Origin: Carcharhinus amblyrhynchos
Lineage: Eukaryota
Reading direction: 5' to 3'
DNA length: 64,000 nt
Assembly (NCBI GenBank): GCA_965287045.1
Contig: OZ336888.1
Span: 35,464,001-35,528,000 of the forward strand
The notes below the pieces were generated by a model. The model saw only the letters and a list, made by a program, of their open reading frames with translations. It did not search any database and had not been told where the DNA came from. The position numbers and the translations under genes were made by a program. This document shows positions 2,331 to 64,000 of this stretch, one piece after another; position 1 is the stretch's first letter, and every line of letters starts with the position of its first letter.

Positions 2331-2949
2331 TCACGTGTCTGCTATATTCTGGGAACATGGGCATCGCTGGCTAGGAGGGAGTGTTAGTTGCCCAAATTTA
2401 AAGTTGTAAATTTATAAATGAAGGGGAATTTGGCTTTACTTGTCTAAGTTGGTTGTGATCGGAAAGCGCTGCCTGATAGAGTGGGGGAAGGAGGAAGGCA
2501 AGTCATTTTCAAAAGGAAGTTGGATAAATATGTGAAAAAGAAAGGCTTGTAGGTCTGTGGGAAACGAGCTAGGGAATAGGACCAACTGGATGTCTCTTTC
2601 AGTGAGCTAGCACAGATAGGCCGAATGGCTTCTTTCTGCGTTGTATGATTCTATAGGCTTGTAAGGCACGGCCCAAACATCCAAAAGTCATTCGTATTGA
2701 GTTCCTTGAATTTTATTCTCCAATAATAAATGATAAGATCAACTCAGATCAATGAGGGAGTTTTCAGGAATCCCGGCATCATTGTACAGTGGGAGGAGGG
2801 TGAGGGAGATATACTTAGGCTGCTTCTCTCAATGTCATCACTGCAGAAACCCTGTATTCCCCTTTCAGAAAGAGTAAAAAGTGATAGCAATTTAACATCA
2901 TCTGCTCCAATCAAACCTGATCTTCCATCACAGTGCATCAAAGGCTCAT

Positions 2950-4580
2950 TATTTGATTTTGATTTGATTTATTATTGTCACATGTATTGGTACAAGTGAA
3001 AAATATTGTTTCTTGTGTGCTAGATGGATAGAGCATACCACACATAGGGAAGGAGAGAGTGTAGAATGTAGCGTACAGGCATAGCTAGTGTGTAGAGAAA
3101 GATCAACTTAATGTGAGATAGGTCCTTTCAAAGGTCTGATGACAGCAGGGAAGAAGATGATCTTGAGTCAGTTGATACATGGCCTCAGACTTCTGTATCT
3201 TTTTCCTGATGGAAGAAAGTGGAAATGTCCAGGGTGTGTAGGGTCCTTAATTATGCTGACTGCTTTTCTGAGGCAGCAGAAAGTGTAGACAGAGTCAATG
3301 GATTGGAGGTTGGTTTGTGTGATGGACTGGGCTTTGTTCACAACTCTCTATAGTTTATTGCTGCCTTGGGCAGAGCAGGAGACATACCAAGCTGCGGTAC
3401 AACCAGAAAGTATGATTTGTGTGGTGCCTCTGTAGAAATTGGTGAGAGTTGTAGCAGACATGCCAAATTTCCTTAGGTTTCTGAGAAAGTAGAGGCGTTG
3501 GTAGCTTTTTTAACTATAGTGTCTGCATGGAGGGACCAGGACAGGTTAGTTGATGATCTGGACATCTAAAAGCTTGAAGCTCTCAACCATTTCTAATTCA
3601 TCCCATTGATGTAGACGGGGGCATACCCTCCACTACGCTTCCTGAAGTCAATGACTATTTCCTTTGTTTTGTTGACATTGAGGGACAGATTATTTTTATC
3701 ACACCAGTTTGCTAATTCTCTATCTTTCCTGTGCTCTGTCTCATCATTGTTTGAGATCTGACTCACAACAGTGATGTCATCAGCAAACTTGAAAACTGAG
3801 TTGGAGGGGAATTTGGCCACACGGTCATTGATGTATAAGGAGTACAGTAAGGGGCTGAGGACACAGCCTTGCAGAGCACCAGTGTTGAGGAGATTGTGGG
3901 GGAGGTGTTGTTGCCTATCTTTACTGATTGCGGTCTGTGGCGTTAGGAAGTCGGGTCCAGTTGCAGAGGGAGGAGCTGAGCCCCAAGCCACGAAGTTTGG
4001 AGATGACGGTCATAGGAATAATGGTGTAATATATGACTAGGAGTGTGACATAGGTGTCTTTGTTATCTAGATAATCCAGGGTTGAGCGCAGGGCCAGGGA
4101 GATGGTGTCTGCTGTGGACCTGTTGCAGCAATAGTGAACTATAGTGGATCCGGGCAGTCCGGGAGGCCGGAATAGATTTGTGCAATGACTAACCTTTCAA
4201 AGCACTTCATAATGATGAATGTCAGAACCACTGGACGATCGTCATTAAGGCATGCTGCCTAGCTTTTCTTTCGTACCAGGATGATGGCCACCTTCTTGAA
4301 GCAGATTGGAACCTCAGATTGGTGTAAAGAGAGGTTAAAGATGTCTGTGAATATCTCTGCCAGCTGGTCCATGCAGGATCTGAGGGCCCGTCCAGGTACT
4401 CCACCTGGGCCAGTCGCTTTCTGTGGGTTGACTTTCGAGAAAGTTGCTCTGACGTTGGCGATGGTGACCTCGGATACAGGTTCGTCCGAGGCCTCCGGGA
4501 TGGAGGGAATGCTCTCGTTGACCTCTTGCTCAAAATGTGCATAGAATGCATTGAGCTCATCAAGGAGGGTGTATTGGAGC
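2950..4580 (-). mobile_element. Rex1/Babar-type LINE, 5'-truncated, disrupted ORF2 (RT)
   Basis: Minus-strand translation GALQGCVLSPLLYSLY...FADDITVVSQISNNDETEHR...LNVNKTKEIVIDFRK; (AAATC)n tail at ~2950-2975. Confidence 0.9.
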
Positions 4581-5459: not shown

Positions 5460-5974
5460 ATCATGTCAGTGCCAGCTCCATGGCGGAGATATCTAATTAG
5501 TTCCGGCTGTCATACTCTTTCCCAATAGCTTTGTTACTTATTTCCCTTCTTGTACTTATCCAAATTTCTTTTGACAGTTCCTATCAACTCTGCTTCCACC
5601 ACACCTCCAGGCAGTGCATTCTACTAACTTCTAATAACTTGCTGCACAAAAAGTATTTTGAAAAAGGAAATTGGATAACTGTTTGAAAGGAGAAATTTCG
5701 CCCGGCTATGGGGAAAAGGCAGGGATTGGAATTAATTAGATATTTCCTTCAAAGAGCCAGTAACAACATGATGGGCTGAATGGTTACCTTCAGTGATGCA
5801 ACAGTTGTTGAATATTACAAGGAAAATGCTTCTTCACTGAGACCCTTGGCTCATTCTGCTTCTCTGACAGGAACAGGAGGAGGCCATTCAGCCCCTTGAA
5901 CCTGTTCCACCATTCAATGAGATCACCGCTGATCTGTGGCCGAACTCCGTATACCAGTCTTTGGACCAGGCGAG

Positions 5975-6330
5975 AGGCATTAATGAAGTGGTATTGTCAC
6001 TGGATCAGTAATACAGGCACCCAGGCTAATGCTCTGGGGACCTGGGTTCGAATCCTGCTATGACAGATGGTGAACTTAGAATTCAATAAATATCTGGAAT
6101 TAACATTCTAATGATGACCATGAAACCATTGTCAATTGTTGTTAAAAAAAAAATCCCCTCTGGTTCACTAATGCCCTTTAGGGAAGGAAATCTGTTGTCC
6201 TTCCCTGGTCTGGCCTATATGGGATTCCACACCCACAGCAAGCTGTTGACTTTTAACTCCCCTCGTGGATGGGTAATAAATGCTGTCCCAGTTAGCAACA
6301 CCCACATCCCATGAACAGATAAATAATAAA
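5975..6330 (+). mobile_element. tRNA-derived SINE, second family (B box GGGTTCGAATCC; tail ...CCCACATCCCATGAA...AATAAA)
   Basis: Homologous copies at 15358-15710(-), 28650-29000(-) and 39260-39590(+); tail shared with LINE remnants at 35660-37020 and 62040-62480. Confidence 0.8.
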
Positions 6331-6974: not shown

Positions 6975-7127
6975 TCAATGCATCTAACCAGCATATCGCT
7001 CAAACTGTGGGAGGAAACTGGAGCACCTGGGGGATACCCAGGCAGATATGGGGAGAACATGAAAATTCCACAGACAGCAACCCAAGCCAGGAATTGAACC
7101 CAGGTCTCTGGCACTGTGAGGCAGTTG

Positions 7128-7665
7128 CCGCACTTACGCAAGGATATTTAGGCCTTGGAGGGAGTGCAGAGGAGGTTTACTAGGCTGAAGCCAGAGTTGA
7201 GGGGGTTGAGCTATGAGGAGAGGCTGAATAAACTAGGCTTGTACTCGTTAGAGTTTAGAAGAATGAGGGACATCTCATTGAGACATATAAGATGATGAAT
7301 GGGATGGATAGGATAGAGGTGGAGAGACTCTTCCCGCTCAGAAAGGACAGTAGGACTAGGGGGCACAACCTCAGGATAAAGGGGGGGCAGTTTAGAACGG
7401 AGTTGAGGAGGAACTTCTTCTCTCAAAGGGTGGTGAATCTCTGGAATTCTCTGCCCGTTGAAGTGGTGGAGGCTGCCTCGCTAAATATTTTTAAGACGCG
7501 GGTTGATGGGTTTTTGATAAGCGAGGGGATTAAGGATTACGGGGAGAGGGCGGGAAAGTGGAACTGAGCCACGACAGATCAGCCATGATCTTATTGAATG
7601 GCGAGGCAGGCTTGAAGGGCTAGATGGCCTACTCCTGCTCCTATTTCTTATGTTCTTATGTTCTA
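7128..7665 (+). mobile_element. Young CR1 LINE 3' end
   Basis: KDSRTRGH...RRNFFSQRVVNLWNSLP ORF2 C-terminus and (TTCTTATG)n tail; near-identical to 27836-28558 and 44305-44720. Confidence 0.95.
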
Positions 7666-11905: not shown

Positions 11906-12974
11906 ATCATAGAATTCCTACAGTGCAGAAGGAGGCTATTCAGCCCATCAAGCCTGTACCGACCACAATCCCACCCAGGCCTTATCCTCGTAACCCCATG
12001 TATTTACCCTGCTAATCCCCTGACACACTGACCCTAAGAAATCGGAAACTCGCCTGTGCGTATCATGTTTTTCGAATCTCTTCTGATTTTGAGCGTGTGT
12101 TGCAATTCCCAGGGGTGGAGATTGCAGAGTTAAAATTACCCTCAATGTGTTGAAGTTAAAATGGGAGAATTGGTTGCAGCAGACATGCTGCTGAGATTGG
12201 AGCCTGTAAGTATCATTAGAAAAGCCTGTTGAATGACAACAGGAGGGCCCCAGTTCCCCAGGTTGATCCTTTACCCGAAAGAGTTGCAAGATTCATGCAA
12301 AAGAAAGAAAACCTTTGAATCAAAACATTAGAAAGAAAGCAGCCAAGGCAGATTTCTGCATGGATTCCCCCGATTGGATGTTGTTTCCATGGAGATTTGT
12401 ACTGTTTCCTCAAGGTTCCCACAGGTCTTCCATCAAAATTGCAGTGGATGTGAAAATTAATTATATTTTTACTTCATGCATTGAGAAGAGGCGGTGATGA
12501 AACTCCCAGGCAACACGTATATGAAAAGAGGAACCTTGAAATACACAAAGAGACTTTAAAATTAGAAACAAAATAGAAGGGGCTGGAGAATCTCAGCAGG
12601 TCTGACAGCATCTGCGGAGAGAGAATCAAGCCAACGTTTCCAGTTCCAGTGACCCTTGGTCAGACGTTTAAAATTAGAGTTTGGTTGCTGAGGGCAGTGG
12701 AAATCCCAAACTCTTCCACAAAATGTGAATGAAAGAAAGGCCAGCTCAGATGTAAAGATGGTTGAAGGAATCTTCATACTGTTCCCTTCAATTTTCTTCT
12801 CAACGTCAATTAGTGTTGGCCTGGGTGGGATTATGGTCGGTGTGGGTTCGATGGGCTGAATGGCCTCTTTCTGCACTGTGGGGTTCTCCAGATTCTATGA
12901 AATGGTTGGGAACGGTGGAGGCCAGTTGAATTTTTCAAGACCGAGATCATTTGTGTTGAAGAAGTGCGTCATAT

Positions 12975-13522: not shown

Positions 13523-14959
13523 CAACGCCAGAGCAGGCTCAAGGAGCTAAATTGGCTTTCCCCTATTGCTGCATTTCTAAGTGAGTTTGACACAGACAGG
13601 TTGAATAAATGAAGATAACACACTAAAGGGAAATAAAGATCATTGCCGGGGTTAAAAAAAAAACTGATGAGGTTAACTCGGTGCTGCAGAAAATGCTGAC
13701 TGCAAATGAGTGTGACTCAAACGCTGACAGCATCAGTGCTTCACAGTGTAATAAGGAGCAGATAGACTAATCAGGTAATATATGCACCCAGGGGCACCTG
13801 CAGACAAGTCCTGGTCACGCTGCAGTAATGTTAGGATCAGATGGCTCCATGGGGGATAGAGGTTGGACATTAATAAATGTTAATTGCTTTACTAACAGTT
13901 TGAAATGATTCTGCTTTGTTGGGTTCAAGTCGAGCCAGATTGAATCCACCAAAGCGGCTGGAGTTCATTTTCCTGTTGTCACTGCATTGTGTGCCCAACA
14001 GTTCAAGAGGCCATGATCAGTAACCCCCTCATTCCATCCCTCCTGTCTATGATGAATTTTACCAGTGGGTGAGCAGGCGTGTCTGAGACACAGTCACAGC
14101 ACGGGAATAATACATTGGCGACATTCCACATCATGTTGTGGTCTTCATGCTAGGTGCCAGTCGCCTCCAAGCCCTGCCTAGGTAGAATGGCCTCTCAGGG
14201 TTGCCCAACGCTAATCAACGTTCAGAAGAAAATTGAAGGGAACAGTATGAAGATTTATATCAGAGTTGGCCTTTCTTTATTAACATTTTTTGGTTTTTCC
14301 TTAGAGGCTGGTGAATTATCGCAAGCCTTTCTGCCGGATGTTTTTAAAAAAAAGATTTTGCCCCCAGCCACATAGGTGGAAGGGTAGTGACATGAGGTGA
14401 AGAGCTGGAGGGTTGCCAAGGGGAAAAGGGTGGGGTGATGGAATGAGGGAGGAGGGGCTTGAGGGATGTAAGGACAATGGGGCACCTGAGAAGGTGCCTG
14501 CTCCAACTTCCCTCAGCAATACTGTCTAATGTCAGGATGTGCCATTGGGGTTGTTGGGATTGTCTAAATTGGGAGACTTCTTCAATATCACCTCCCAAAC
14601 CTAGAATTTCCAGCACCTAGAAGCTCAAGGGTAGCATGAGAACATCATCACCTACAAGTTTTTCCTCAAAGTCATTCACCATCCTGCCTTGGAAATGTCT
14701 TGCTTTTCCTGCGTGATCGCTAATTCAAAATTCTGTACACAACAGCCTTTATTGGCTGGGCTGCAGCCATTCAGGGCAACCTTGTGAGCTCAATACATGC
14801 TGCCTTTCCAGAAACACCCACATCCTGGGAATAAACCATAAAAAATAAATTGCGCCAATTAAAATTGTTGGACCTGTAATACCAGGCATCTCTTGAATTC
14901 AATAGAAGGTAGACAGAAGATAGTGAGGACAACAACACTGTGTATTAATATAGTTGCTG

Positions 14960-15710: not shown

Positions 15711-17670
15711 TGTTTATGGAGCTTGGTAATCTCTTTGATGTAATCCAGGGCTTGAGTGACACCTTATTACCAATTAAAATCAAGCATTAAAAACTATTTC
15801 CGTTGTCATGAAACATCAAGGTATTTCCTGTTTTATAGACTTGGAGGAAGATTGAGTAATTTAGTATAGGTACAAGAAGAAGCTATCATTATCCAAATCT
15901 CTTGTGTCTTACTTTCCAATTTGGGGACAGGGCACACTAGGAGGAAGACTAGGGGAAGACATATTCAGGATACACAAGTGAATGGATGCAAACAAAGTAA
16001 AATAGCAGACTTTGAGGAAGGTAATAGTGAGGAAAAAAAACCTGAGTAGTTCAAAATTATGGGTCTTGTAAAGTGGGAGTGATAACAAATAGGTCAGGAA
16101 GTCAGCAACTGGTGATTGTGGGTTTTGTATGTTGAGAGGATGTGTATAAAAGCAAGGAAGGGATCCTCAATTTGCACAGAATGAGAAGATAGCTTTCACA
16201 GAAGAATGGGTCACACCAGGGAACAGTAATGATTAGTATGACGAGAGGCTGGAGTTAAAGAGACACAGTTCTTCACATTTATTTTCTCTCAATGCAACAG
16301 ACACGATTACAATCCGGCTCCACCACAACCTTGGCAAATGTGATGAGCTATTCAAATGTCCACTGACTTCAATGGGACCAGAAGATTCAACGGGGGGAGA
16401 GATAAGGACATTCCAACCAAAAGAATTTTGGTGATTGTCGCATTAAGAAAGGTTTTGAGAGGGTAAATAGTGAAAAGCTGTTTCCACTGGTTGTTGATTC
16501 TGTAGGAAAGGGACTACGGACTGAGGGCTAGCAGTGGAACGGTGAAGTGGGTGGTGAGAAGAAATACTTACATGTTGCAAATTAGAACAGAGATTGTTTT
16601 GCCACATGGGGTGACTAAGGCTGAGATGATATCATTTAATAGGAACATATTAAAGAATTTTTAATAGAAGCCTTGAATAATACAGCCCATCACACTTGTG
16701 TCAGCTCTCAAAAGAGCTACTCATTAGTCCCACTTTACCCATTGCCCAGTAAAGGAAAAACATAAAATAATTTCAGGAAAGGGCATGGATGATAGCAGCA
16801 ATCTCCAATTAAAGGACTGACACCAGCTGAGCAATAACATGCTGAATGACCTCCTCCTGTGCTTTAGTTTCAATGGTTTGAATTCCTGTATATGTTTTGT
16901 TGGTACCATGATAATTGCTCAGAGAGAATGCTGTTGGACTCAGTATATGAGCAACGAGCTGGAGGGCACAGCTTCAGCATTATCAAGCTTCAAGCAAGAC
17001 TGGAGATTAGGAGAATGCTTTTCCCAATAGACAGGTGAACGTGCAGAGCAGACGCGCAGCAGAGGAACATGACCTTCAGGGAAGATTCAGATAGATATGC
17101 AGGAGCAACAATATCTAAAGGTCACAGGAATAGGTACAAAAGCAGGAATAGGTACAAGACCAGGATTGAACCAGAGATGTCTACAGAATGAGGGATAGAA
17201 TCAACATTATGTATGGAACCTTAAACAGAACCACAGGTACTTCGAGAAACAGATACCTAATGCAATATAATACATCTAACAAAAATCTATCACTTTGTTT
17301 TGAATTTTATTAATTGACCCCCATCCTGTCCCCAACGTTTTTTTTCAGGGAGAGATTTCAGGTTTCCTCTGAGTAATTTAGTTCTAATTTTAATGCTATA
17401 CACCCTGACCCAGACTCCTGAACCAACCAATCCTTCAAGGGTACAGTGGTTATCACTGCTGCCTCACAGTGCCAGGGACCTGGGTTCAATTCCAGCCTCG
17501 TGTACCTGCCTGTGTGGAGTTTGCATGTTCTTTGCATGTCTGCATGGGTTTCCACTGGGTGCTCCAGCTTCCCCCCACAGACCAAAGATGTGCAGATTAG
17601 GTGGATTGGCCGTGTTAAAATTGCCCCTTTGCATCAGGGGATTAGAAGGGTAAATACAGAGGTTATGGGG

Positions 17671-18006
17671 ATAGAACCCTACAGTGCAGAAAGAGGCCCT
17701 TCAGCCCATCGAGTCTGCACCAAACACAATCCCACCCAGGCTCTACCCCCGTATCCCCACATATTATACCCACTAATCCCTCTAACCTACACATCCCTGG
17801 ACACTCCGGGACAATTTCTTAGCATGGCCAATCAACTTAACCCGCACATCTTTGGACTGTGGAAGGAAACCTGAGCACCCGGAGGAAACCCACGCAGATA
17901 CGAGGAGAATGTGCAAACCCCACACAGTGACCTGAGCTGGGAATCAAACCCAGGACTCTGGAGCTGTGAAGCAGCAATGCTAACCATTGTGCAACTGTGC
18001 CGCCCC
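17671..18006 (-). mobile_element. Full-length HE1-like V-SINE forming the 3' end of the NFX1-bearing insert
   Basis: Head GGGCGGCACAG..., V-domain GTGTGGGGTTTGCACATTCTCC...GGTTTCC, CR1-type tail ...CACTGTAGGGTTCTAT. Confidence 0.9.
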
Positions 18007-18009
18007 AAG

Positions 18010-18150
18010 GGGCTATAAACATGTACCCCTAGACCTCTTTGTTCTGTAACTCTCTCCAATGCCCTACCATTAACTGAGTAAATCCTGCCATGGGTCACTA
18101 ATTTTTCTTCCTACTTGCAATACTTTACACCTGCTCATACCATGCTTCAT
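18010..18150 (-). mobile_element. Internal CR1 ORF2 fragment
   Basis: Minus translation YSVNGRALERVTEQRGLGVHV resembles CR1 Y..NG..L..V..QRDLGV.V. Confidence 0.7.
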
Positions 18151-18411
18151 TTGTCGTTCTTCCAATAATTTCTCGCAGCTCAAGTTTGGGAAGCCTGAAG
18201 TCCCCAGGAGAATGCTATTTCTCAGTCCCATTTCCAATCCCAAGTTATTCTGTAGGTCTTTAGCCTCCCTTTCTTTAACATCCTCTGCAAATTTATGTTG
18301 CTAAATTGAACTTTGCATTTTTAAACAAGTATGCTATGATCACTGTTCCTACAATAAAAACAGCAAAATGCTTTTGATTTAATGAACAAGGTGGCAGAGC
18401 TATTCTCTCAC

Positions 18412-18547
18412 TTGGATGATCACATTCATGATCCCTGATGCAGGGGTTTTTGCATTCTGGAGGTCTGGTGCCACATGGTACTGGAGGATAGATCACCGAT
18501 TTGCCACAGTGACATGTTAGCTCATCGAAACTACTTTGCCAGCAAGG
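18412..18547 (-). pseudogene. NFX1: Isolated fragment of NFX1 (NF-X1-type zinc finger region)
   Basis: [45 protein letters not shown] closely matches recalled vertebrate NFX1 ([31 protein letters not shown]...HECDHP). Followed by donor-like GTGAGA. No other NFX1 exons seen in the window. Confidence 0.9.
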
Positions 18548-19579
18548 GGCCTGGGTGGGATTGTGGTCGGTGCAGACGCAATGGACCAAATGGCTTCCTT
18601 CTTCACTAAGGATTCTACGGGATTCTATGATCATGCTAAACCCATCAATAAGATCACCCCTTATCTTCCCTGAGAAAATGAATAGAGACCTACACCGTGC
18701 AGCCTAATTTCATAATTTAATTCTTATAGTCCAAGTATCATTGTGGCAAAATTGTTAAATCAGCACACTTCTCATCAAAATTATCTAATCACCTTTCCCT
18801 GCATTACCACAGTAAGTATACTTTGAAAGTTCTTCCGTGGCTGTAAACACCTTGAGGATGTTGTGGAAGGCTTGTCAGAGATGGGTTTTGTTTCTATAAA
18901 CTTTCAGCATCAGCAGGTAACTGCTCACAGACTGAGGGAGGCTGATCTGCAGACAGACCCATTCTTACACGCAGTCTGGGTGTTGGACATGCTAAACCTC
19001 CGGGAATGAGAGGTTAATCTCTCAGACATGACTGCAAAAAAAAAGCCAGGAGAAAAATCATAAGGGCATGAAAAAATACTTTGTGTCTTAATTTATTTCA
19101 TTTTACTTGAACACTTCTGTCCTTGTTTATATGAACAAATAGAGATGGGAAGAACCAGGCTACCTGACTGTAGGACAGGCATCATCCAACTGGGTAATGG
19201 AAAGTCTATTTGTTTTCTGATTGGCTCTGGGAGAGAAGGACATGTTGGGTATCCGATGGCAGGAGTAAGGAGGCTCTGGGGCAAAGCCTAGAGTGTGTCC
19301 AAACAGGATTGACAGCATTACCGTGTGTAGAGGAGGCTGCCCACTTCGACTCTAAAAATGATCTTAGAAGGACAGCCAAGCTTTCTATCTTATCTCTCCA
19401 TATTCTGTGCTTGGCATTGCACCAATTGTTACTCCAGTTAACGCAATATTTCTCTCCCCAGATTGCTAACATTTTCCCCTAATCATTGTAGCAAATTCAC
19501 TTCAATTCCTTCTGCCCTGACTGCAGTACTCTGAACTTCCACACTGCTCACGATTGCTTGCTTCTGTCTCTCACACCTT

Positions 19580-24799: not shown

Positions 24800-24955
24800 T
24801 GTGTGGAAAAATGAGAGGGATAGTGCATCTGGAAAGAAAAAGCGAGGACGAAAGGAGGAAGAGAGGGAGGAAGGAGGGGAGGGAGAAGTGGAGGAGAGGC
24901 AAGAGGAAAGAGACAGAAAGGAGGGGAGGATGAGAGAAGAAAGAGGAGGGGAAGG
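24800..24955 (+). repeat. Polypurine (GA-rich) low-complexity tract
   Basis: Nearly pure G/A from ~24830 to 24955. Confidence 0.85.
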
Positions 24956-24999
24956 AATTCGACTCTGACCGGTCACATCTCCCAAACGTGTTGCACCCC

Positions 25000-25270
25000 A
25001 TTCACTGACACACTTTCCTCTATCTTGCAGGACAAGGTGGCACACACAACAGGAGCTAACCAGGGCAGGATGGAGGAGACAGTGTCAGCCATGACTGGAG
25101 CAGCCATTGATGATGATGTGGTCGTTGGCAGGGCTATGATATCCTCAAATAGAATTTGCCTTCTCACATCCCGTGCCTCCTCATCCCACAGTCTCTTGTG
25201 ATTTACAAGTTGCAGATAGTGTCAGCATGCACCTTTCAATTCCCCAATCCCCACCTCAAACCACAACCTT
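25000..25270 (+). mobile_element. Second Harbinger Myb-like gene remnant (exon-2 region)
   Basis: CTTTCCTCTATCTTGCAG|GACAAGGTGGCACAC..AACAGG (DKVAH-NR) parallels the acceptor and exon at 9803/9804. Confidence 0.5.
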
Positions 25271-27835: not shown

Positions 27836-28558
27836 AGAAATAAGAACATAAGAACATAAGAACATAAGAAATAGGAGCAGGAGTAGGCCATCTGGCCCTT
27901 CGAGCCTGCCCCGCCATTCAATAAGATCATGGCTGATCTGTCGTGGCTCAGTTCCACTTTCCCGCCCTCTCCCCATAACCCTTAATCCCCTCTCTTATCA
28001 AAAACCCATCAACCCGCTTCTTAAAAATATTTAGCGAGGCAGCCTCCACCACTTCAACGGGCAGAGAATTCCAGAGATTCACCACCCTTTGAGTGAAGAA
28101 GTTCCTCCTCAACTCCGTTCTGAACCGCCCCCCCTTTATCTTGAGGCTGTGCCCCCTAGTCCTACTGTCTTTTTTGAGCGGGAAGAGTCTTTCCACCTCT
28201 ATCCTATCCATCCCATTCATCATCTTATACGTCTCAATGAGATCTCCCCTCATTCTTCTAAACTCTAACGAGTACAAGCCTAGTTTATTCAGCCTCTCCT
28301 CATAGCTCAACCCCCTCAACTCCGGTATCAGCCTAGTAAACCTCCTCTGCACTCCCTCCAAGGCCAAAATATCCTTGCGCAGGTGCGGCGCCCAAAACTG
28401 CACACAGTACTCCAGCTGCGGCCTCACCAATGCCCTATACAGCTGCAGCAAGACCTCCCTACTTTTATATTCAATCCCCCTCGCTATGAAGGCCAGCATC
28501 CCATTCGCCTTCCTGACCACCTGCTGCACCTGCAGGCTGGGTTTTTGCGACTCATGCA
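27836..28558 (-). mobile_element. Young CR1 LINE 3' fragment with an uninterrupted ~200-codon ORF2 C-terminus
   Basis: KANGMLAFIARGIEYKS...LVRPQLEYCVQFWAP...RRMRGDLIETYK; (TTCTTATG)n tail; CpGs retained. Confidence 0.95.
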
Positions 28559-41994: not shown

Positions 41995-43473
41995 ACCCAT
42001 TGCGTTTGCCTGGCAGCTCTCTGCTCACCTCTCTGATTCAGATCAGTGGGGGCAGGAGGTGGGAGGACGGGTGGGGGGAGGTGGGTCTGATGGCTCTCTG
42101 GTGGGGGGGAGGGGGAGGTGGGTCAGATAGCTCTCTGGTGGGGGGGAGGGGGAGGTGGGTCAGATGGCTCTCTGGTGGGGGGGAGGGGGAGGTGGGTCAG
42201 ATGGCTGTCTGGTGGGGGGGAGGGGGGAGGTGGGTCAGATGGCTCTCTGGTGGGTGGGGAGGGGGGAGGTGGGTCAGATGGCTCTCTGATTGGGGGGGGA
42301 GGGGGAGGTGGGTCAGATGGCTCTCTGATTGGGGGGGGGAGGGGGAGGTGGGTCAGATGGCTCTCTGGTCGGGGGGGAGGGGGGAGGTGGGTCAGATGGC
42401 TCTCTGGTGGGGGGGAGGGGGGAGGTGGGTCAGATGGCTCTCTGGTGGGTGGGGAGGGGGGAGGTGGGTCAGATGGCTCTGATTGGGGGGGGGAGGGGGA
42501 GGTGGGTCAGATGGCTCTCTGATTGGGGGGGGAGGGGGAGGTGGGTCAGATGGCTCTCTGATTGTGGGGGGAGGGGGAGGTGGGTCAGATGGCTCTCTGA
42601 TTGGGGGGGACGGGGAGGTGGGTCAGATGGCTCTCTGGTGGGTGGGGAGGGGGGAGGTGGGTCAGATGGCTCTCTGGTGGGGGGGAGGGGGAGGTGGGTC
42701 AGATGGCTCTCTGGTGGGTGGGGAGGGGGGAGGTGGGTCAGATGACTCTCTGGTGGGTGGGGAGGGGGGAGGTGGGTCAGATGGCTCTCTGGTGGGGGGG
42801 GAGGGGGGAGGTGGGTCAGATGGCTCTCTGGTGGGTGGGAGGGGGGAGGTGGGTCAGGGCTCTCTGGTGGGGGGGGAGGGGGGAGGTGGGTCAGATGGCT
42901 GTCTGGTGGCGGGGGAGGGGGGAGGTGGGTCAGATGGCTCTCTGGTGGGGGGGAGGGGGGAGGTGGGTCAGATGGCTCTCTGGTGGGGGGGAGGGGGGAG
43001 GTGGGTCAGATGGCTCTGGTGGGGGGGAGGGGGGAGGTGGGTCAGATGGCTCTCTGGTGGGAGGGGAGGGGGTGCAGGGGAGCTCCACTGCCACTCTGCA
43101 TGCAAATGGTGGAGGGAAGGGGGATCCTCTGCCTCTCTGCATGCGATCAGTCTGAATGATGGAGGGGGATAGGGGGTGAATTATGTTGTGGGGGTGGGAC
43201 AATGTTTGTGCGGGTCAGGGGACAGGCATTATCTGGCCATGGAGTGATGTGACAGGGGAGCCTCTTCCTAACGTCTTTTTGTTGTGCATGTGCGGTTGGA
43301 GACGCTGATTGGAGCTGCAGTGTTGCGGATGTGGTAAGCCTCACCCACAGGCTGTTGCAGTATGATTCAGAATCACTGATATTTCTGCATGGGAGCGTCT
43401 GAGAACATCTAAAAGTCTGATCTCAAACACTCCCAGATTCAGCACTTAGAATCAAAACGGTGAAATTGGGCCT
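41995..43473. mobile_element. Non-autonomous Harbinger-like element hosting a minisatellite
   Basis: 43080-43470 is the reverse-complement homolog of 4862-5280; ends GGTGAAATTGGGCC. Confidence 0.65.
42055..43075. repeat. G-rich minisatellite, ~36-39-bp unit (GGGGGAGGTGGGTCAGATGGCTCTCTGGTGGGGGGGA), about 27 copies
   Basis: Direct tandem array with variable G-run length. Confidence 0.97.
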
Positions 43474-45500: not shown

Positions 45501-48224
45501 ATGGACTTTGATAAAGGGTCAGCTAACTGGCGTACTCGGAAAATACAGACACAAAATATTAACACAAGAACAGAAAGTTGCGTATTTAAATAGCTTCAGG
45601 ATAGGAAGTCGAGAGTAGCAGCTTTCAAACAGGAGAGAAGCGTAGCGAGGAGTTTGGTGTTGGGACCATTATTTTTCTTAGTATGTATAAATTGCCTTAG
45701 GTATAAAGAGTACAGTCTTGAAGTGTGCAGTGAAAGAAACCCTGGCAGTGTAGTAAATAATGAGTAGGACAGTAGCAGAGTTCAGGAGACACATGCAAGA
45801 TACAATTTAATGTTGATAAGTATGAATGGTTGCACTTTGGGAGCAATAACATGGAGAGGTAGAATAATATAAATGGAACTATTTTGAGAGGGTCAAGAAC
45901 AGAGGGACCTGCTGCTGTATATTCAGAAATCCTTGACAGTGGGAAGACAGGTTGAGAAGGCAACAAAAAAAAAATGTGATACTGGGCTTTGAATAGAAAT
46001 ATTTCCAATTCACTTGTTAGATCTCAACTGAAGTGTTGGGCACAACAGATTATGAAGGATGTCAAGATTTTGGAGAGAGTATAGAGGAGGATGAGACCAG
46101 GGGTGAGAGACACCAGTAATGGGGGAAAACAGAGAATATCGTCCTTAAAACAGGGAAGGTAGAGGTGAACCTGAGGGATTCAAAATTAGGAGGGATTTTG
46201 AAAGAGCAAATAGGGAGAAACTGTTTCCATTGGCAAATATGTCAGTGTCACAAGAAATAATATATTTAAAATACTGGTAATTGGTGAAAGAGCTAAAAGC
46301 AAAATGAGAATTTTTTTTTTCACACACAGGGTTGATAAGATCTGGAATGCATTATCTGAAAAGGTGGCAGGAACAGATTCCATATGAACTTTGAAAAGGC
46401 AGTTGGTCATGTACGTGAAGAGGATTAATTTGCAGCTTTGTTGCAGATAAAGCTGGGGTCTAGGACATGTTTGAACAGCTCTTTCAAAGAGTGAACTCAG
46501 TCAGGATGCACCAAATGTTCTCCTTCTGTGCTATTTCTGTTCAGTCTCTGGAGCGTGACTGGAACCCAAAACTTTCTGACTCAGAGGACAAAATGCTACC
46601 AATTAGTCAAGCTGCGCACAAGGTTGAATTTAATGCATCCTGATAGGGCAGCAGGAAACATGGCTGCCAGGCCCAGTAGGAGGGGCTTCACATCATTCTC
46701 CTGCCATCCTTACTCATCTTTTGCTCGGGGGCCCCTTGGTGACCCAGGCACTCTGGTGGAGGCATTCTCAACAGATACCACCACTCCCAATGCCACTGAT
46801 GGCCATGAGGAGCAGCCAGCCTCTGATTCGTCAAAACTCTTGAGAGGCAGGATTGCCACCCCAGGGATCCTGTCTTGCGAAAGACCCAACAGTGGCCAGT
46901 TAAATGCCTGATGGACATTTAACTCATCAGGCTTTTCCCATTGAAATGATGGAGTTTCCTCACTAATTCTCCAAGCAAAGGGCAAGACCCCCAGCAGGGA
47001 GTGTTTGATTGGGACAGTGTCGAGGGAGCGTTACTCTGTATCTAACCCCATACTGTACCTGTCCTGGGAACATTTGATGGGAACAGTGTAGAGGGAGCGT
47101 CACTCTGTATCTAACCCTGTGCTGTACCTATTCTGGGAGTATTTGATTGAAAGAGTGTAGAGGGAGCATCACTCTGCATCTAACCCCATGCTGTACCTGT
47201 CTTGGAAATGTTTGATGGGAGGCAGCGCAGAGGGAGATTTACTCTGTATCTAATCCCCTGCTGTACCTATTCTGGGGGCATTTGATGGGGATAGTGTAGA
47301 GGGAGTGTCACTCTGTATCTAACCCTGTGCTGTATCTATTCTGGGAGTGTTTGATGGGGATAGTGTCGAGGGAGCATCATTCTGTATCTAACTCTGTGCT
47401 GTACCTATTCTGGGAGTGTTTGATTGGGACTGTGTAGAGAGCTTTACTCTGGATTTAACCCCGTGCTGTACCTGTCCTGGGAATGTTTGATTGAGACAGT
47501 ATCGAGGGAATATCACTCTGGATTTAACCCTGTGCTGTACCTGTCCTGGGAGTGTTTGATGGGGATAGTGTAAAGGGAGTGTCACTCTGTATCTAACCCT
47601 ATGCTGTATCTATTCTGGGAGTGTTTGATGGGGATAGTGTCGAGGGAGCATCATTCTGTATCTAACTCTGTGCTGTACCTATTCTGGGAGTGTTTGATTG
47701 GGACTGTGTAGAGAGCTTTACTCTGGATTTAACCCCGTGCTGTACCTGTCCTGGGAATGTTTGATTGAGACAGTATCAAGGGAACATCACTCTGGATTTA
47801 ACCCTGTGCTGTACCTGTCCTGGGAGTATTTGATGGGGATAGTGTGGAGTGAGCATCACTGTGTATCTAATCCCGTGCTGTACCTATTCTGGGAGTGTTT
47901 GATGGAGATAGTGTAGAAGGCTTGTCACTCTATGTCTAACCCTGTGCTGTACCTGTCCTGTAAGTGTTTATGGGGACTGTATAGAGGGAACTTCACTCTG
48001 TATCTAACCACGTGCTGTAGCTACTCTGGAAGTGTTTGATTGAGACAGTGTTGAGGGAATGTCACTCTATATCTAACCCTGTGCTGCACCTATGCTAGGA
48101 GTGTTTGATGAGGACAGTGTAGAGGGAGCTTCACTAAGTATCTGACCCCGTGCTGTACCTGCCCTGGGAGAGTGTACAGTGTAGAGAGAGCTTTACTCTG
48201 TATCTAATCTATGTTGTATTTAAA

Positions 48225-48530
48225 GTCATAGAAACCCAATGGAGCAAAAAGGGGGCCATTCAGCCCATTGAGCCTGCACCGACAACAATCCCACCCAGGC
48301 CCAAGCACCTTAACCCTATGTATTTATGTATTCACCCTGCTAACCTCCCTGACACTAAGGGTCAATCAACCTAACTGCACATTTTGGACTGTGGCAGGAA
48401 ACCAGAGCACTCAGAGGAAACACATGCAGACACGAGGAGAACATGTAAACTCCACACAGTCAGTCACCCCTAAGAATTGGGTCCCACATGCTATGAGGCA
48501 TCAATGCTAACCACTGCGCCACCGTTACTG
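48225..48530 (-). mobile_element. HE1-like V-SINE inside the satellite
   Basis: Tail, V-domain and head all present on the minus strand. Confidence 0.85.
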
Positions 48531-48691
48531 CCCTGCAAATGTTTGATGGGGATTGTGTCGGCGGAGTTTCTCTCTCTGCCTAGACCTATGCTATATCTTT
48601 TGTGGGAATGTTTCATGAAATAACATCGAGGGAACTTTACTGTGTATCTAACCCATGTTATACCTGTAATGGGAGTGTTTGATGGGACAGT

Positions 48692-49497
48692 TGTTATAAA
48701 TATGAAACGTTATATGACAGTTATGTTTATAACTGTCTTCTTTAAATTTAAGGTAAAATGGAATGTCCTGTTATAGGGGATGGTAACCATACCGAAATCT
48801 GCCAATAGACATGTCTATGTGATTTGGTTGCCATGGAGGTAGAGAACAGGTCGAAACTCTTCAAGTGCTAATTTTCACACCTTGATACGAAATAAGGACA
48901 GCTGGTCCAGCTGAACACAAACTCACAGTCTCTGTCAGACTGAGAACCTTGAAGAGAGAAACTGAAAATGGCTGTTGTTCTGTCAGGCAAGGGAAATGGC
49001 TGCTTTGGGTTAACAACCAAGCAGAATAATGGTGGGAATGGATTCTCTGTTTAAAGAGATGGGATCTGTCTAGATTTGAAGATATAGGCATGGCCAAAGG
49101 ATGCTTTGCTGCTGGAAGTCATTTAGCAGGATTGAGTAAAGGGGTTTTTAATGGATATTGAAAGACTCTTCCCAGCACAGCAGGGAGGAGACAGTATGTT
49201 AAATCACCAGGACAAATTTGGGACTTTATCAGAAGACTACAGATCTACTGGGAGCGTGACATAAAGTATAAACTAGGTTGTTTTCAGCTGTGCTAATTGG
49301 TTAATGAGGAAGGGGCAGTACCTTTTCTGTAGATCAGTCTATTAGTTGCCTACTAAGTAATATTCATTTGTTGTTGCTTTTAGTTTGTTTCTTATAATAA
49401 AAGTCTTAAAAAGTGAAATCTTGTACCATTCTTTGCACTGGGCACTAGGAAATTCATACCTCCTTTTATAAGATACTGATCGCTACAGGCATTCATT
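48692..49497 (+). mobile_element. Solo-LTR-like insertion in the satellite
   Basis: Starts TGTTATA directly after the satellite sequence GGGACAGT; AATAAA at 49396-49401; 3' end decayed. Confidence 0.6.
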
Positions 49498-50096
49498 TTG
49501 GATTGGACTCTTCTGAATCTATGTATCTGCTCTGGGAGTGTTTGGTGGGACAGTGTAAAGGGAGCTTTACTCTGAATCCAACCCATACTGTATCTACTCT
49601 GGGAGTGTTTGATTGGACAATTGAAGGAACTTTACTCTGTATCTAACCCCATGCTGTACCTATCCTGAGAGTGTTCGATAGGACAGCCTAGAAAGAACTT
49701 TATACATATCTATATATCTCTAACCTTTTGCATATCTGTTCTGGAAGTGTTTGATGGGACAGTATTGAGGGAAGTTTACTCTGTATCTAACCCTGTGCTG
49801 TACCTGTCCTGGGAATGTTTGATGGGACAGTATTGAGGGAAGTTTACTCTGTATCTAACCCTGTGCTGTACCTGTCCTGGGAATGTTTGATGGGACAGTA
49901 TTGAGGGAAGTTTACTCTGTATCTAACCCTGTGCTGTACCTGTCCTGGGAATGTTTGATGGGACAATATTAAGTGAACTTTACTCTGTGTCTAACCTGTG
50001 CTGTAGTTGTCCTGGAAACATTTGATGGGACATTATTGAGAGAACTTTACTCTGTATCTAACCCTCTGCTGTACCTGTCCTGGGAATGTTTGATGG

Positions 50097-51856
50097 TCAT
50101 GATGTGAAGATGCTGGCATTGGACTGGGGTGAACACAATAGGGAGTTTCACAATACCAGGTTATAGTCCAACAGGTTTATTTGGTAGCAAAAGCTGCTAG
50201 CTTTCAGGCCTTTGACCCTTTGTCAGGTGAGTGGAGAGTTCTGGTCATAAACAGGGGATGTAAAGTTTACAGAATACTGATTAGAATGTGAGTTTTTACA
50301 GCTAATCAAGTCTTAAAGGTGCAGACAATGTGAGCAGAGAGAGCATCAGGGACAAGTTAAAGAGATGTGTATTGTCCGCAGGCAGGTCAGTTAGTGAGAT
50401 TTTGCAAGCCCACGAAAGTCATGGGGGTTACAGATAGTGTGGCATGAACACAAGATCCGATTGAGGCCGTCCTCATGTGTGCGGAACTTGGCTATCAGTT
50501 TCTGCTCAGTGACTGCGCTGTCATGTGTTGTGAAGGCCACCTTGGAGAATGCTTACCCGAAGGTCAGAGGCTGAATGCCCGTGACCGCTGAAGTGTTCGC
50601 CAACAGGAAGGGAACAGTCTTGCCTGATGATTGGCGAGTGGTGTTCATTCATCCGTTGTCATAGCATCTACATGGTCTCCCCAATGTACCATGCTTCGGG
50701 ACATCCTTTCCTGCAGTGTATCAGGTAGACAACGGTGGCTAAGTTACAATAGTATGTACTGTGTACCTGGTGGATGGCGTTCTCAAATGAGATGACGGCA
50801 TCTGTGTCGATGATCCGGCATGTCTTGCAGAGGTTGCTGTGGCAGGGTTGTGTGGTGTAGTGGTCACTGTTCTCCTGAAGGCCGGGTAGTTTGCTGCGGA
50901 CATTGGTCTGTTTGAGGTCGTGCGGTTGTTTGAAGGCAAGAAGTGGGGGTATGGGGAGGCCTTAACGAGATGTTTGTCTTCATCAATGACATGTTGAAGA
51001 CTCCAGAGAAGATGCCATAGCTTCTCCGCTCTGGGGAAGTACTGGACAACGAAGGGTACTCTGTCCACTGTGTCCCGTGTTTGTCTTCTGAGGAGGTCGG
51101 TGTGATTTTTGGCTGTGGTGCATTGGAACTGTCGATTGATGAGTCGAGCGCCGTATCCTGTTCTTATGAGGGCATCTTTCAGCGTCAGGTGGTGTCTTTT
51201 GCGAATCTCCTCATCTGAGCAGATCCTGTGTCTACGGAGGCCTTGTCTGTAGGGGATGGCTTGTGTTTAGGGCGGAAGCTGGAGAAGTGGAGCATCGTGA
51301 GGTTATTGGTGGGCTTGCAGTACAGTGAGGTGCTAAGGTGACCATCCTTAATGGAGATGCATGTGTCCAAGAATGCAACCGATTGCAACTTCAGCGGTCA
51401 CGGGCATTCGGCCTCTGATCTTCGGGTAAGCGTTCTCCAAGGTGGCCTTCACACGACACAAAACAGCGCAGAGTCGCTGAGCAGAAACTGATAGCCAAGT
51501 TCCGCACATATGAGGATGGCCTCAACCGGGATTTTGGGTTCATGTCACACTATTTGTAACCCCCGTGACCTGCCTGGGGCTTGCAAAATCTCACTTACTG
51601 TTCTGTCTGGAGACAATACACATCTCTTTAACTTGTGCCTGATGCTCTCTCCACTCACGTTGTCTTTAAGTCTTGATTAGCTGTAAAAACTCACATTCTA
51701 ATCAGTATTCTGTAATCTGAGTGTATGTCTTTACATCCCATGTTTGTAATCAAAACTCTCCACTCACCAGATGAAGAATCAGAGGCCCGAAAGCTAGTGG
51801 CTTTTGCTACCAAATAAACCTGTTGGACTTTAACCTGGTGTTGTGAGACTTCTTAC
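50097..51856 (-). mobile_element. Penelope-like retroelement (RT C-terminus + GIY-YIG endonuclease) with an inverted pLTR
   Basis: Minus: VAFLDTCISIKDGHLSTSLYCKPT, DRVPFVVQYFP. Plus-strand inverted copy at ~51390-51856: FSGHGHSASDLRVSVLQGG...EQKLIAKFRT.EDGLNRD. AATGTTTGATGG is duplicated at 50085-50096 / 51857-51868. Confidence 0.95.
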
Positions 51857-52994
51857 AATGTTTGATGGGACAGTATTGAAGGAACTTTACTCTGTATCTA
51901 ACCCTGTGCTGTACCTGTCCTGGGAATGTTTGATGGGACAGTATTGAGGGAACTTTACTCTGTATCTAACCCTGTGCTGTACCTGTCCTGGGAATGTTTG
52001 ATGGGACAGTATTGAGGGAACTTTACTCTGTATCTAACCCTGTGCTGTACCTGTCCTGGGAATGTTTGATGGGACAGTATTGAGGGAACTTTACTCTGTA
52101 TCTAACCCTGTGCTGTACCTGTCCTGGGAATGTTGGATGGGACAGTATTGAGGGAACTTTACTCTGTATCTAACCCTGTGCTGTACCTGTCCTGGGAATG
52201 TTTGATGGGACAGTATTGAGGGAACTTTACTCTGTATCTAACCCTGTGCTGTACCTGTCCTGGGAATGTTGGATGGGACAGTATTGAGGGAACTTTACTC
52301 TGTATCTAACCCTATGCTACTACTTCACTGAAAATGTTTAATGAGCAGATGAGGACCAGGAAATAGACTCATTTTACACTACTGACTACCCTTCATCTCC
52401 ATAAGCACAAACCTCCTTCATTAAAAGAAATTGAAATACTTAAATTAAATATCATAACATATCTGTGCCACGGATCACAGTGAATTACAGAGGTGCCTCC
52501 TTAATTCGAAACTTGACTTAGCCCATTCATTTCTTCCCCACAGCAGGTATCTGGGGTAATTTAGGAAACCATTAATCTAGCCTTTGTGCAGCCTTGGCTG
52601 CAGCTTTAACCAGTGTAGAGGATGGGTGTAATTCTCTGGGTAGAGACACAGTCATTCATCAGGTGCAGATCTTTCTCTAATTTCCTTTCCAATACGGTTT
52701 ACTTGCGAATTAATGTGTTGCCCTTCGCACTTGCCATTGCAGCATGGTTGAGTCGGGGTAATATTTTATTCAGACATCAGGTAATCAGTTAGGAATTATT
52801 TTCCTTTGCTGCTATACTCCTGAATTTGTTTTGAAGTAATGGTTTGTGAGTCTGCTGCTCAATTTTCATCCAGTGTTGAGACAGGAGGCCATTTGATCGA
52901 TCCTCACCAACTTTCCATTAGAATTCTACAACACCCACCACAGCATCTAAAAGCTTCCTGAATGAATTCTGTGATTCGACTCTGGAGATTTTGA

Positions 52995-56062: not shown

Positions 56063-56754
56063 CTCTGTGGTGATAGTTTAGGGATAGGATGGCAGGTTAT
56101 TGCTGCCAGTCTGGCGACAACAGGGGAGCTCAGACTGGAACTGAATGTGTGGAGTCCCCCAGAACTGGATAATGGAGAAGGACACAAACAACTGACACTG
56201 GCAGGTCAAGAGAGATGAGAATGGAAGGGCTGCAGGCAATGGAATTAAACACTTTTCCACTAATGTTACTCCAGTAGTCTCACCTCTAAATTTTGTTTGC
56301 TTTCTATCCTGGAGAATGCATGGAAGCCCGACAGTGCGGTTGGAGGCCATTTACTCCATCGAGTCAACACCTACCCTCTGAAAGAGCATTGAAAAGTTGG
56401 GATTCCTGTTTCCATCAGTTTAAATTTATGATCAGAACTTTACGCCTGGTAGTCCCCCTCACCAGATTGCTCATTTATGTCCTGAGGGGGACGGGGGAGT
56501 TTCACAAGGCGGGGTGGTTTCCATGGGGGGGGGGGGGGGGGGTAGTTCCGCTATCATGGAGATTAGGTGGGTGAGGTGGGGTGGGGGGTGGTTCCATTGT
56601 TGGGGGGGAATCAATTTTATCCCTTACTTTAGACTGCTCTCTAAAAACAGTGCCCTGATCATTTGAAAAGCTGTTGTTAGGGCAGTGTGAGACCCTGGGA
56701 CCTGCCCCTTTCTCTTTGTTTGGCAATGGGCTGAAAATACAGTGGGTAAAACTG

Positions 56755-57818
56755 GCAGCGCAGTCAGGGAGGGGGGGGTTTACCCCCACAGCGCAGTCGG
56801 GGAGGGGGGGGTTTACCCCCACAGCGCAGTCGGGGAGGGGGGGGTTTACCCCCACAGCGCAGTCGGGGAGGGGGGGGTTTACCCCCACAGCGCAGTCGGG
56901 GAGGGGGGGGTTTACCCCCACAGCGCAGTCGGGGAGGGGGGGGTTTACCCCGGCAGCGCAGTCGGGGGGGGGGGGTTTAACCCCGCAGCGCAGTCGGGGA
57001 GGGGGATGGGGGGTTTACCCCCGGCAGCGCAGTCGGGGGGGGGATGGGGGGTTTACCCCCGGCAGCGCAGTCGGGGAGGGGGGGGGGGGGGTTTACCCCG
57101 GCAGCGCAGTCGGGGAGGGGGTGGGGGGGGTTTACCCCGGCAGCGCAGTCGGGGGGGGGGGTTTACCCTGGCAGCGCAGTCGGGGGGGGGGGTTTACCCC
57201 GGCAGCGCAGTCGGGGGGGGGGGTTTACCCCGGCAGCGCAGTCGGGGGGGGGGGGGTTTACCCCGGCAGCGCAGTCGGGGAGGGGGGGGGGGGTTTACCC
57301 CGGCAGCGCAGTCGGGGAGGGGGGGGGGGGTTTACCCCGGCAGCGCAGTCGGGGGGGGGGGGTTTACCCCGGCAGCGCAGTCGGGGGGGGGGGGGTTTAC
57401 CCCGGCAGCGCAGTCGGGAGGGGGGTTTACCCCGGCAGCACAGTCGGGGGGGGGGGGGGGTTTACCCCGGCAGCGCAGTCGGGGAGGGGGGGGAGGGTTA
57501 CCCCCGCAGCGCAGTCGGGGGGGGGGGGGGGGAGGGTTACCCCCACAGCGCAGTCGGGGAGGGGGTGGGGGGGGTTTACCCCCACAGCGCAGTCGGGAGG
57601 GGGTGGGGGGGGGTTTACCCCGGCAGCGCAGTCGGGGAGGGGGGGGGTTTACCCTGGCAGCGCAGTCGGGGAGGGGGTGGGGGGGTTTACCCTGGCAGCG
57701 CAGTCGGGGAGGGGGGGGGGTTTACCCTGGCAGCGCAGTCGGGGAGGGGGGGGGGTTTACCCTGGCAGCGCAGTCGGGGAGGGGGTGGGGGGGTTTACCC
57801 TGGCAGCGCAGTCGGGGG
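56755..57818. repeat. G-rich, CpG-rich minisatellite, ~30-38-bp unit (CAGCGCAGTCGGGGAGGGGGGGGTTTACCCC..), about 30 copies, within a short Harbinger-like element (56728-57877)
   Basis: Tandem array. The host ends GGGCTGAAAAT...AAAATTGCACCC with AAT/AGT flanks and appears to split a Deu-type SINE. Confidence 0.95.
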
Positions 57819-62480: not shown

Positions 62481-63248
62481 ACTCCTTGCTGTTCTTTGAT
62501 TGGTACCATGGGATCTTCGCTCCCCAGTAGATGGAAAGACCAGTTTAACATTCCATCCAAAGAACATCTCCCCCTGCAATGTTACACATTCTCTATATCT
62601 AATCCATACTTCAATTCCACTTACCTGGCATGACCCCACACAACTTCACATCCTTAACCTCCAGCATCCGCAGCATGTTGAGGAGATTTTCAGATTTCCA
62701 GCAGGTTAGAACCTCGCCTGGCAGGAAAGTAGGTCCTGTGGAGACCAGTGGGACTGGGGCTGGGGCTGGGGAAGTGCATTGGTTGTTGGAGGCCAAAACA
62801 TTGGCACATTATTTTACCCACAGGAGTATGGCAACTCGGGGATTTTCACAGTAACTTCATTGCAGTGTTAATATAAGCCTACTTATGACTAATAAATAAA
62901 TAAACGCAGCATTGAATTTGTGCACAGGAAGATCCCACAAACAGCAAAAAAAAAGATGTTTGAAGGATTTCATGGTAAGTGTGGTAATATTAAGATGATT
63001 TTCAGTTACACATGTCAAATCTGCTCCAGAAAGAGCAGTTGCTCGGAGTAATTTCAAAGCATTGGTAGGCCCCGATGCTTCAGACCCCGTACTCTGTCTG
63101 TTCCCTGGAAGAACGAACAGGACAGGTGACAGAGGTAATTATTTATAGTGGGGGATGGGCAGATGGGTGGGATCTTACTGCTGATTTGTCAGGCTGTTGG
63201 TTTGTGATAGGTTGATACTTGTTAACATGACCAATCAGCAATGGAATC

Positions 63249-64000
63249 CTGTCCACATCAGTACCCGAAAGACCACCCCCCCCTCCCTGTCCACATCAGT
63301 ACCCGAAAAACCACCCCCCCTCTCCCTGTCCACATCAGTACCCGAAAGACCACCCCTCCCTCCCTGTCCACATCAGTACCCGAAAGACCACCCCCCCCTC
63401 CCTGTCCACATCAGTACCCGAAAAACCACCCCCCCTCTCCCTGTCCACATCAGTACCCGAAAGACCACCCCTCCCTCCCTGTCCACATCAGTACCCGAAA
63501 AACCACCCCCCCTCTCCCCGTCCACATCAGTACCCGAAAGACCACCCCCCCCCGTCCACATCAGTACCCGAAAGACCACCCCCCCTCCCTGTCCACATCA
63601 GTACCTGAAAGACCACCCCCCCCTCCCTGTCCACATCAGTACCTGAAAGACCACCCCCCCTCCCTGTCCACATCAGTACCCGAAAGACCACCCCCCCCGT
63701 CCACATCAGTACCCGAAAGACCACCCCCCCCGTCCACATCAGTACCCGAAAGACCACCCCCCCCGTCCACATCAGTACCCGAAAGACCATCCCCCCCCGT
63801 CCACATCAGTACCCGAAAGACCACCCCCCCCTCCCTGTCCACATCAGTACCCGAAAGACCACCCCCCCCTCCCTGTCCACATCAGTACCCGAAAGACCAG
63901 CCCCCCCCCGTCCACATCAGTACCCGAAAGACCATCCCCCCCCGTCCACATCAGTACCCGAAAGACCACCCCCCCCTCCCTGTCCACATCAGTACCCAAA
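63249..64000. repeat. C-rich minisatellite, ~33-39-bp unit (GTCCACATCAGTACCCGAAAGACCACCCCCCCCTCCCT), about 20 copies, running off the window
   Basis: Direct tandem array. Confidence 0.97.

Follow-up and report, generated by a model that had tools for sequence, protein, structure and literature searches.

The 64,000-nucleotide stretch of Carcharhinus amblyrhynchos DNA analyzed here (contig OZ336888.1, positions 35,464,001 to 35,528,000; the window in what follows) contains a fragment of the NFX1 gene that was probably generated by an enzyme of the CR1 clade, through the copying of a partly spliced NFX1 transcript back into DNA from the tail of an intronic SINE. The fragment belongs to a minus-strand insert of ~875 bp (17671-18547) lodged inside a tRNA-type SINE of the plus strand, which it splits. 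Read along the minus strand, the insert consists of NFX1 codons, a splice donor, the start of an intron, a decayed CR1 element and a full-length SINE, in that order.

The process that we envisage would have started with an NFX1 transcript from which the upstream intron had been removed and in which the next intron was still present, with an old sense-oriented SINE (the cargo SINE) lying ~400 nt into it; co-transcriptional splicing would leave the upstream intron out and the current one in. The ORF2 protein of a CR1-clade element, presumably CR1 itself, would bind the stem-loop of the SINE tail in trans, and an unrelated SINE copy (the host SINE) would be nicked on the plus strand after ATAG, with the free DNA end at 17674 annealing to the last bases of the tail. 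Copying would then proceed back through the SINE and the CR1 relic to the beginning of the intron, cross a complete exon and come to a stop 13-14 nt into the exon that precedes it, and the 5' end would be joined with two extra bases and a duplication of at most 1-2 bp. The RNA may have ended at the tail or may have been primed internally.

The insert and its junctions

The two halves of the host SINE join back up at 17674|18548, which confirms the original prediction that an insert had split a plus-strand SINE whose halves rejoin. The 5' part of the host (17440-17674, plus strand) corresponds to positions ~17-254 of an intact 337-nt copy, and its 3' part (18548-18631, plus strand), the tail of which is more decayed than that of the cargo, starts at position 255; once the two are rejoined, the alignment of the host with the remaining copies of the window is in register. 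At the left junction, the predicted microhomology between the host and the final nucleotides of the cargo tail is a 4-nt overlap (ATAG, 17671-17674, plus strand) that constitutes the putative priming site, and the chance of a given 4-nt overlap is 0.4%. At the right junction, two extra G (18546-18547) are either untemplated or the product of a 1-2 bp duplication. The target site duplication (TSD) at the insert measures 0-2 bp, in agreement with the predicted absence of a long TSD, and falls short of the 13-15 bp of an L1-type processed pseudogene. The insert has no poly(A), nor any run of six A, and it ends at the SINE tail and not at an mRNA 3' end. Target-primed copying from the cargo tail, primed at 17674, would explain both junctions. 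A young CR1 3' piece of the same window (7127-7664, plus strand), ~96% identical to a copy at 27839-28475, lies antisense inside another SINE and provides a control, with junctions that display 2-nt overlaps and no long TSD, in a style like that of the NFX1 insert. According to PMC4245944, TSDs of 3-5 bp are the most frequent among CR1/L2 elements, and insertions of zebrafish ZfL2-2 often carry extra nucleotides at the 5' end.

Retrocopies with terminal exon junctions are common in cartilaginous fishes, which suggests that a relaxed reverse transcriptase may be active in this group. Microhomology, extra bases and a missing TSD fit the repair of DNA breaks too. Either of these considerations would lend some credit to the notion that the insert arose through RNA-templated patching of a DNA break, or through internal priming by a different reverse transcriptase (Tx1/L1), the SINE tail being irrelevant in both cases. 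We deem this quite improbable, because the insert has its 3' end within a tail's terminal repeat and the chance of it landing inside a tail zone is at most ~0.5% (31 tail-like matches x ~20 nt / 128,000 strand positions), and because there is no A-rich primer site at the insertion. SINEs account for 4.7% of the window.

Homologous recombination of the cargo with the host SINE was considered and rejected, since the two are antisense to each other and joined tail to middle. This antisense disposition generates nested inverted repeats (17443-17990 and 17672-18617, 75-80% identity), which, as a matter of speculation, may have allowed pairing between the cargo RNA and the other target strand close to the nick. 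A separate SINE fragment (12818-12900) and the right half of the host start at one and the same position of the SINE, so that the right-hand breakpoint alone is not unique. This 3' fragment is preceded by a ~100-bp repeat (the two spanning 12716-12900), an inverted partner lies 1.4 kb away (14205-14293), and the start shared with the right half of the host is possibly a preferred break or insertion site. A self-comparison of the 64-kb window revealed no paralogue of 18005-18545.

The NFX1 exon and its splice junction

The NFX1 piece comprises 44 codons (18544-18413, minus strand), the translation of which is identical at 44/44 positions to the NF-X1 protein of Mustelus asterias (XP_078093649.1), with Carcharodon NF-X1 as the top match of the peptide (E 7e-22, 98%). 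The homology put forward in the original prediction is thus upheld, but not its count of 45 codons: the residue before the piece is Asn in 33 of the 33 named chondrichthyan NF-X1 proteins examined, and the initial Pro of the longer reading is therefore junction sequence. The residue that follows the piece is Val in the same 33/33 proteins, and the last base of the exon (18412) is A where the conserved Val needs G, which amounts to one G>A change. By human annotation, we take the 120-nt exon described below to be exon 14 and the preceding one to be exon 13. Pfam misses the NFX1 piece, and a tblastn search with two whole NF-X1 proteins found no other NFX1 exon in the 64 kb. Full identity to a living protein, together with repeats on both flanks, might lead one to suspect an assembly artefact or the real NFX1 gene. 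Nonetheless, the homology stops mid-exon against the antisense half of a SINE, with no companion exon in the window, the host halves rejoin in register, and reads of an intact gene cannot give a spliced junction; we consider both possibilities extremely remote.

Exon borders were read from read-through proteins, left by gene callers on unspliced DNA or RNA. A total of 154 distinct NF-X1 records were pooled (7 plus the best 150 of 288), and five in which the exon equals that of a named primate (one named dolphin protein and four unnamed records) were left out, so that 149 remain. Upstream of the exon, 92 of these 149 records continue in an NF-X1-like manner and 57 break. Gly stands directly before the first Phe/Tyr in 55 of the 57 breaking records, which is the signature of a phase-1 acceptor (AG|GT), and at the next four positions no residue is present in more than 14 of them. 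A Gly after the exon, arising from G|GT, denotes a downstream phase-1 donor in 30/57. All of these counts refer to the pool of 7 plus the best 150 of 288 records. Among the breaking records are some with an exon 35-39/39 identical to that of a named protein from a teleost, an amphibian, a crocodilian or a rodent, and many others are more distant; their taxa are nearest-match labels, and the more distant ones are probably invertebrate. The original prediction had tentatively placed an intron at S|SFDEL and a 120-nt exon at 18531-18412. Judging from the acceptor signature in this pool (7 plus the best 150 of 288), both the phase 1-1 exon of 120 nt (18412-18531, minus strand) and the intron are confirmed as real, and they can be seen in mammal-, reptile-, amphibian- and teleost-like records as well as in more distant ones.

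There is no shark read-through record among the 154 (7 plus the best 150 of 288). Sharks nonetheless fall between lineages in which the upstream intron is present, and should be expected to share it. Some distant records do without this intron, as illustrated by P0170 (on a 34-kb contig), which reads through the site, and no shark record of the 154 displays it; the window copy might conceivably derive at the DNA level from an earlier retrocopy, or from a shark NFX1 in which the upstream intron had been lost. Against this, the intron is present in every bony-vertebrate group sampled and in outgroup-like records. The end of the insert, moreover, coincides with a tail, and a second-generation copy would still need an earlier RNA step, all of which renders a DNA-level origin very unlikely.

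In the window copy, the last 13-14 nt of the preceding exon (18532-18545, minus strand), at the point of 5' truncation, are joined directly to the 120-nt exon, with the donor and intron on the downstream side still in place. The same half-spliced state occurs in P0048, a mouse-like transcript record from which the upstream intron is gone and in which the downstream one remains. A copy that is spliced upstream and unspliced downstream would have passed through RNA; the splice junction and the retained downstream intron thus lend good support to an RNA intermediate, and to the original view of the insert as a semi-processed copy.

The possibility of exon capture and shuffling was also raised in the original prediction, and it fares less well. 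The copy lacks a promoter or a start, and a search for a host gene in its surroundings yielded none: not one of the 246 non-repeat stop-free segments of 55 aa or longer matches Pfam at E<=0.01, this being a weak test that missed the true NFX1 segment too. The fragment is most likely dead and non-functional, and exon shuffling from this copy is no more than possible. A candidate splice acceptor (18552-18551, minus strand) is provided by the antisense host SINE immediately 5' to the NFX1 piece, which lies within a stop-free frame of 136 codons (18703-18296, minus strand).

The retained intron and the cargo SINE

Downstream of the exon, the insert keeps the start of the NFX1 intron (18295-18411, minus strand), which opens with GTGAGA (18411-18406); initially described as donor-like, this motif occupies the conserved phase-1 site. 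The sequence after the exon, which includes a PPC-like word, was also examined as a degraded next exon and discarded, inasmuch as NF-X1 homology stops at the exon boundary and the conserved donor follows. Only ~115 bp of the intron (18411-18295) are non-repeat. The adjoining ~290 bp (~18294-18006, minus strand, sense) are the relic of an old, frameshifted CR1 ORF2, in which three collinear stretches match the C-terminal region of the reverse transcriptase in blastx comparisons against 69 CR1-like proteins. The best E-value is 8e-6, four of the 69 proteins are matched at E<1e-3, and the best single stretch scores 34.3 bits, as compared with a maximum of 28.9 in 100 shuffles; ESM Atlas returned no usable match for the relic. 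The CR1 fragment and intron-like DNA of the original prediction are both there, although with lengths of ~290 bp for the former, instead of ~100, and ~115 bp for the latter, instead of ~260, most of the supposed intron-like DNA belonging to the relic. The relic holds ~57 nt (~18240-18180, minus strand) that are extra relative to CR1 proteins. It runs directly up to the head of the SINE, and the remainder of this CR1 element is predicted to follow the SINE in the parental intron.

The cargo SINE (17671-18006, minus strand) is full length and in sense with NFX1, and it has a tRNA-like head and a CR1-type tail. As had been predicted, it ends at this tail; more precisely, it stops within the first of the terminal repeat units that follow the tail stem-loop. 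The family name given in the original prediction, HE1, is retained as a presumptive label, based on the HE1-HER1 pairing. Alignment reveals A/B-box-like motifs in the SINE head and a tail common to CR1 ends; neither ARAGORN nor Rfam (0 matches) made a call of the head. The cargo tail forms a two-tier stem-loop similar to those found in other tails of the window, both CR1 and SINE; its outer 8-bp stem is intact (decayed in the host), its inner stem contains a mismatch, and its fold is not exceptional with respect to shuffles (z -1.6). The same stem-loop and terminal repeat are found in a CR1 end at ~2480-2655 (plus strand), an old ORF2 end that is a candidate relic of the partner LINE family; young CR1 copies of the window share the stem-loop and differ from the SINE in their terminal unit. 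The original proposal of priming at the SINE tail is backed by where the insert ends, by a stem-loop that is still intact, by the microhomology and by the absence of both poly(A) and a long TSD. Precedent can be drawn from the literature, in which HE1-HER1 is listed as a SINE/LINE pair of sharks and rays (PMC3747384), ORF2 proteins of the stringent type are described as binding the tail stem-loop, as shown for L2-clade elements (PMC4176376), and SINEs with the same tail stem-loop are said to be mobilized by stringent-type LINE proteins (PMC4176376, PMC3747384).

A comparison of the SINE with the exon favours a recent event that carried an old SINE. With regard to a leave-one-out consensus of the window, the cargo SINE shows 47 differences over 307 columns (15.3%), with the 14 other SINE copies at 11-23% and the rejoined host at 16%, bearing in mind that the consensus is built from 15 mixed copies of one window and that a young subfamily absent from it would inflate the apparent age of the cargo. 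The cargo retains six of 16 inferred CpG sites (10/16 lost), which ranks among the higher values of the 11 copies scored, and its B box has lost an invariant C (C>T). The exon, on the other hand, shows no amino-acid change over 44 codons and a single boundary change (G>A) vs Mustelus. In simulations, the probability of at most one change in the exon is 0.21 at 3% divergence and 0.044 at 5%, and no case was obtained in 20,000 at 15%, which would put exon divergence below ~5%, against 15% for the SINE.

This age contrast bears on a further alternative, in which reverse transcription starts on a free SINE RNA and then jumps to a fragment of NFX1 pre-mRNA ending in the CR1 relic, or in which the two RNAs are ligated. 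Chimeras of this kind have been documented for U6/L1, Alu/L1 and mRNA/L1 (PMC4859970, PMC13174262) and for a fungal LINE/SINE pair (PMC2104539); PMC13174262 states that 15 of 17 human mRNA/L1 chimeras have no intronic L1 in the source gene. A full-length 3' SINE would also be expected from an end-to-end jump. Conversely, the SINE is as decayed as the background copies and its B box is mutated, in conjunction with an almost unchanged exon, whereas Alu/L1 chimeras are described as stemming mostly from concurrently active families (PMC13174262). In addition, the SINE head directly adjoins the CR1 relic, as in ordinary nested insertions, and the SINE is not entered through a splice junction. We hence regard a chimeric origin as unlikely. 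A nearly unmutated exon next to a decayed SINE speaks for a tail borrowed from an old SINE of the intron, and we infer that the cargo SINE sat in the parental NFX1 intron.

Known systems and other features of the window

The closest parallels to the proposed mechanism are the 5' transductions and exon-trapping events of SVA and L1 elements (PMC4859970; RAP1GDS1-L1PA2, PMC13174262), in which a host Pol II transcript likewise runs into a resident element and the 3' end of the element retrotransposes upstream, partly spliced host sequence. The NFX1 insert shares with them a full-length element preceded by a sense host transcript, and lacks their poly(A) and L1 hallmarks. SVA/L1 events present poly(A), L1-type TSDs, young elements and, often, spliced joins, and 5' transduction affects ~10% of SVAs (PMC4859970). 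The NFX1 insert has instead a CR1-type stem-loop tail without poly(A) or a long TSD, its SINE is old, and its exon reads through the donor into the intron. Promoter co-option by a disabled intronic L1, as outlined in PMC13174262, is similar to the NFX1 case. Processed and intron-retaining retrocopies (PMC5470649) share with the insert an exon-exon junction, 5' truncation and, presumably, a new location, but the NFX1 insert begins mid-gene inside an intron and not at the mRNA 3' end. The HE1-HER1 pair (PMC3747384, PMC4176376) similarly involves a tRNA-type SINE, a tail matching a CR1 3' end and CR1-type junctions; here, ~540 nt of pre-mRNA from a host gene were mobilized by the tail as well, and the copy that provided it appears to have been a decayed one, not transcribed from its own promoter. 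Template-switch chimeras (U6/L1, Alu/L1, WEIRD/Mg-SINE/MGL), finally, have sense host RNA 5' of a retroelement 3' end as well, yet they are portrayed as joining two RNAs, whereas the age contrast and the nested CR1-SINE arrangement suggest one continuous transcript in the present case. A search of the openly accessible literature gave no report of host-exon 5' transduction by a SINE with a CR1 tail.

Stringent tail recognition is given in PMC5470649 as the standard reason why CR1-type elements should not copy host genes. The original prediction held in this vein that processed pseudogenes are scarce where CR1 dominates, which is contradicted by a survey of 244 VGP genomes that reports 14,081 retrocopies in cartilaginous fishes and proposes that CR1 or Tx1 sustained retroduplication outside mammals (10.64898/2026.06.26.734816). 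Ordinary retrocopies must hence exist in sharks by some route; the main text of the survey makes no mechanistic use of "stringent" or "tail", beyond its poly(A) filter. The survey required one of three terminal junctions, and isoform breaks imply at least three NFX1 junctions downstream of the one described here, so that its filter would miss the NFX1 insert. The locus would represent one concrete way round CR1 stringency, as a single case and with a fragment that is probably functionless. More tentatively, in genomes rich in CR1 and SINEs any sense intronic tail that still folds might serve as an internal entry point for reverse transcriptase on nascent, co-transcriptionally spliced RNA. Were this to be the case, sharks would harbor retrocopies of a mid-gene, half-spliced class that does not depend on poly(A), the parents of which would be determined by where old SINEs sit and not by expression level; long-dead SINEs would move again under host promoters, and pipelines based on terminal exon junctions would be blind to them.

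The window displays several other features. ARAGORN calls a tRNA-Ile(AAT) at 5994-6067 (plus strand) within a repeated stretch (5972-6264), which could be a gene or the head of another SINE. Long stop-free frames with protein-like composition are present on both strands at 24824-25221, adjoining a purine-rich tract; they have no Pfam match, and ESM Atlas gave no usable match for 24976-25221. A frame at 50739-51266 (minus strand), without a Pfam match, resembles what we take to be a Penelope-like element. A further reverse transcriptase fragment (3485-4561, minus strand; RVT_1, E 2e-11) does not look like CR1. Satellite-like arrays of 68-69 bp and three G- or C-rich minisatellites with units of 33-39 bp are located at 46997-52318, 42069-43072, 56754-57817 and 63248-63997.
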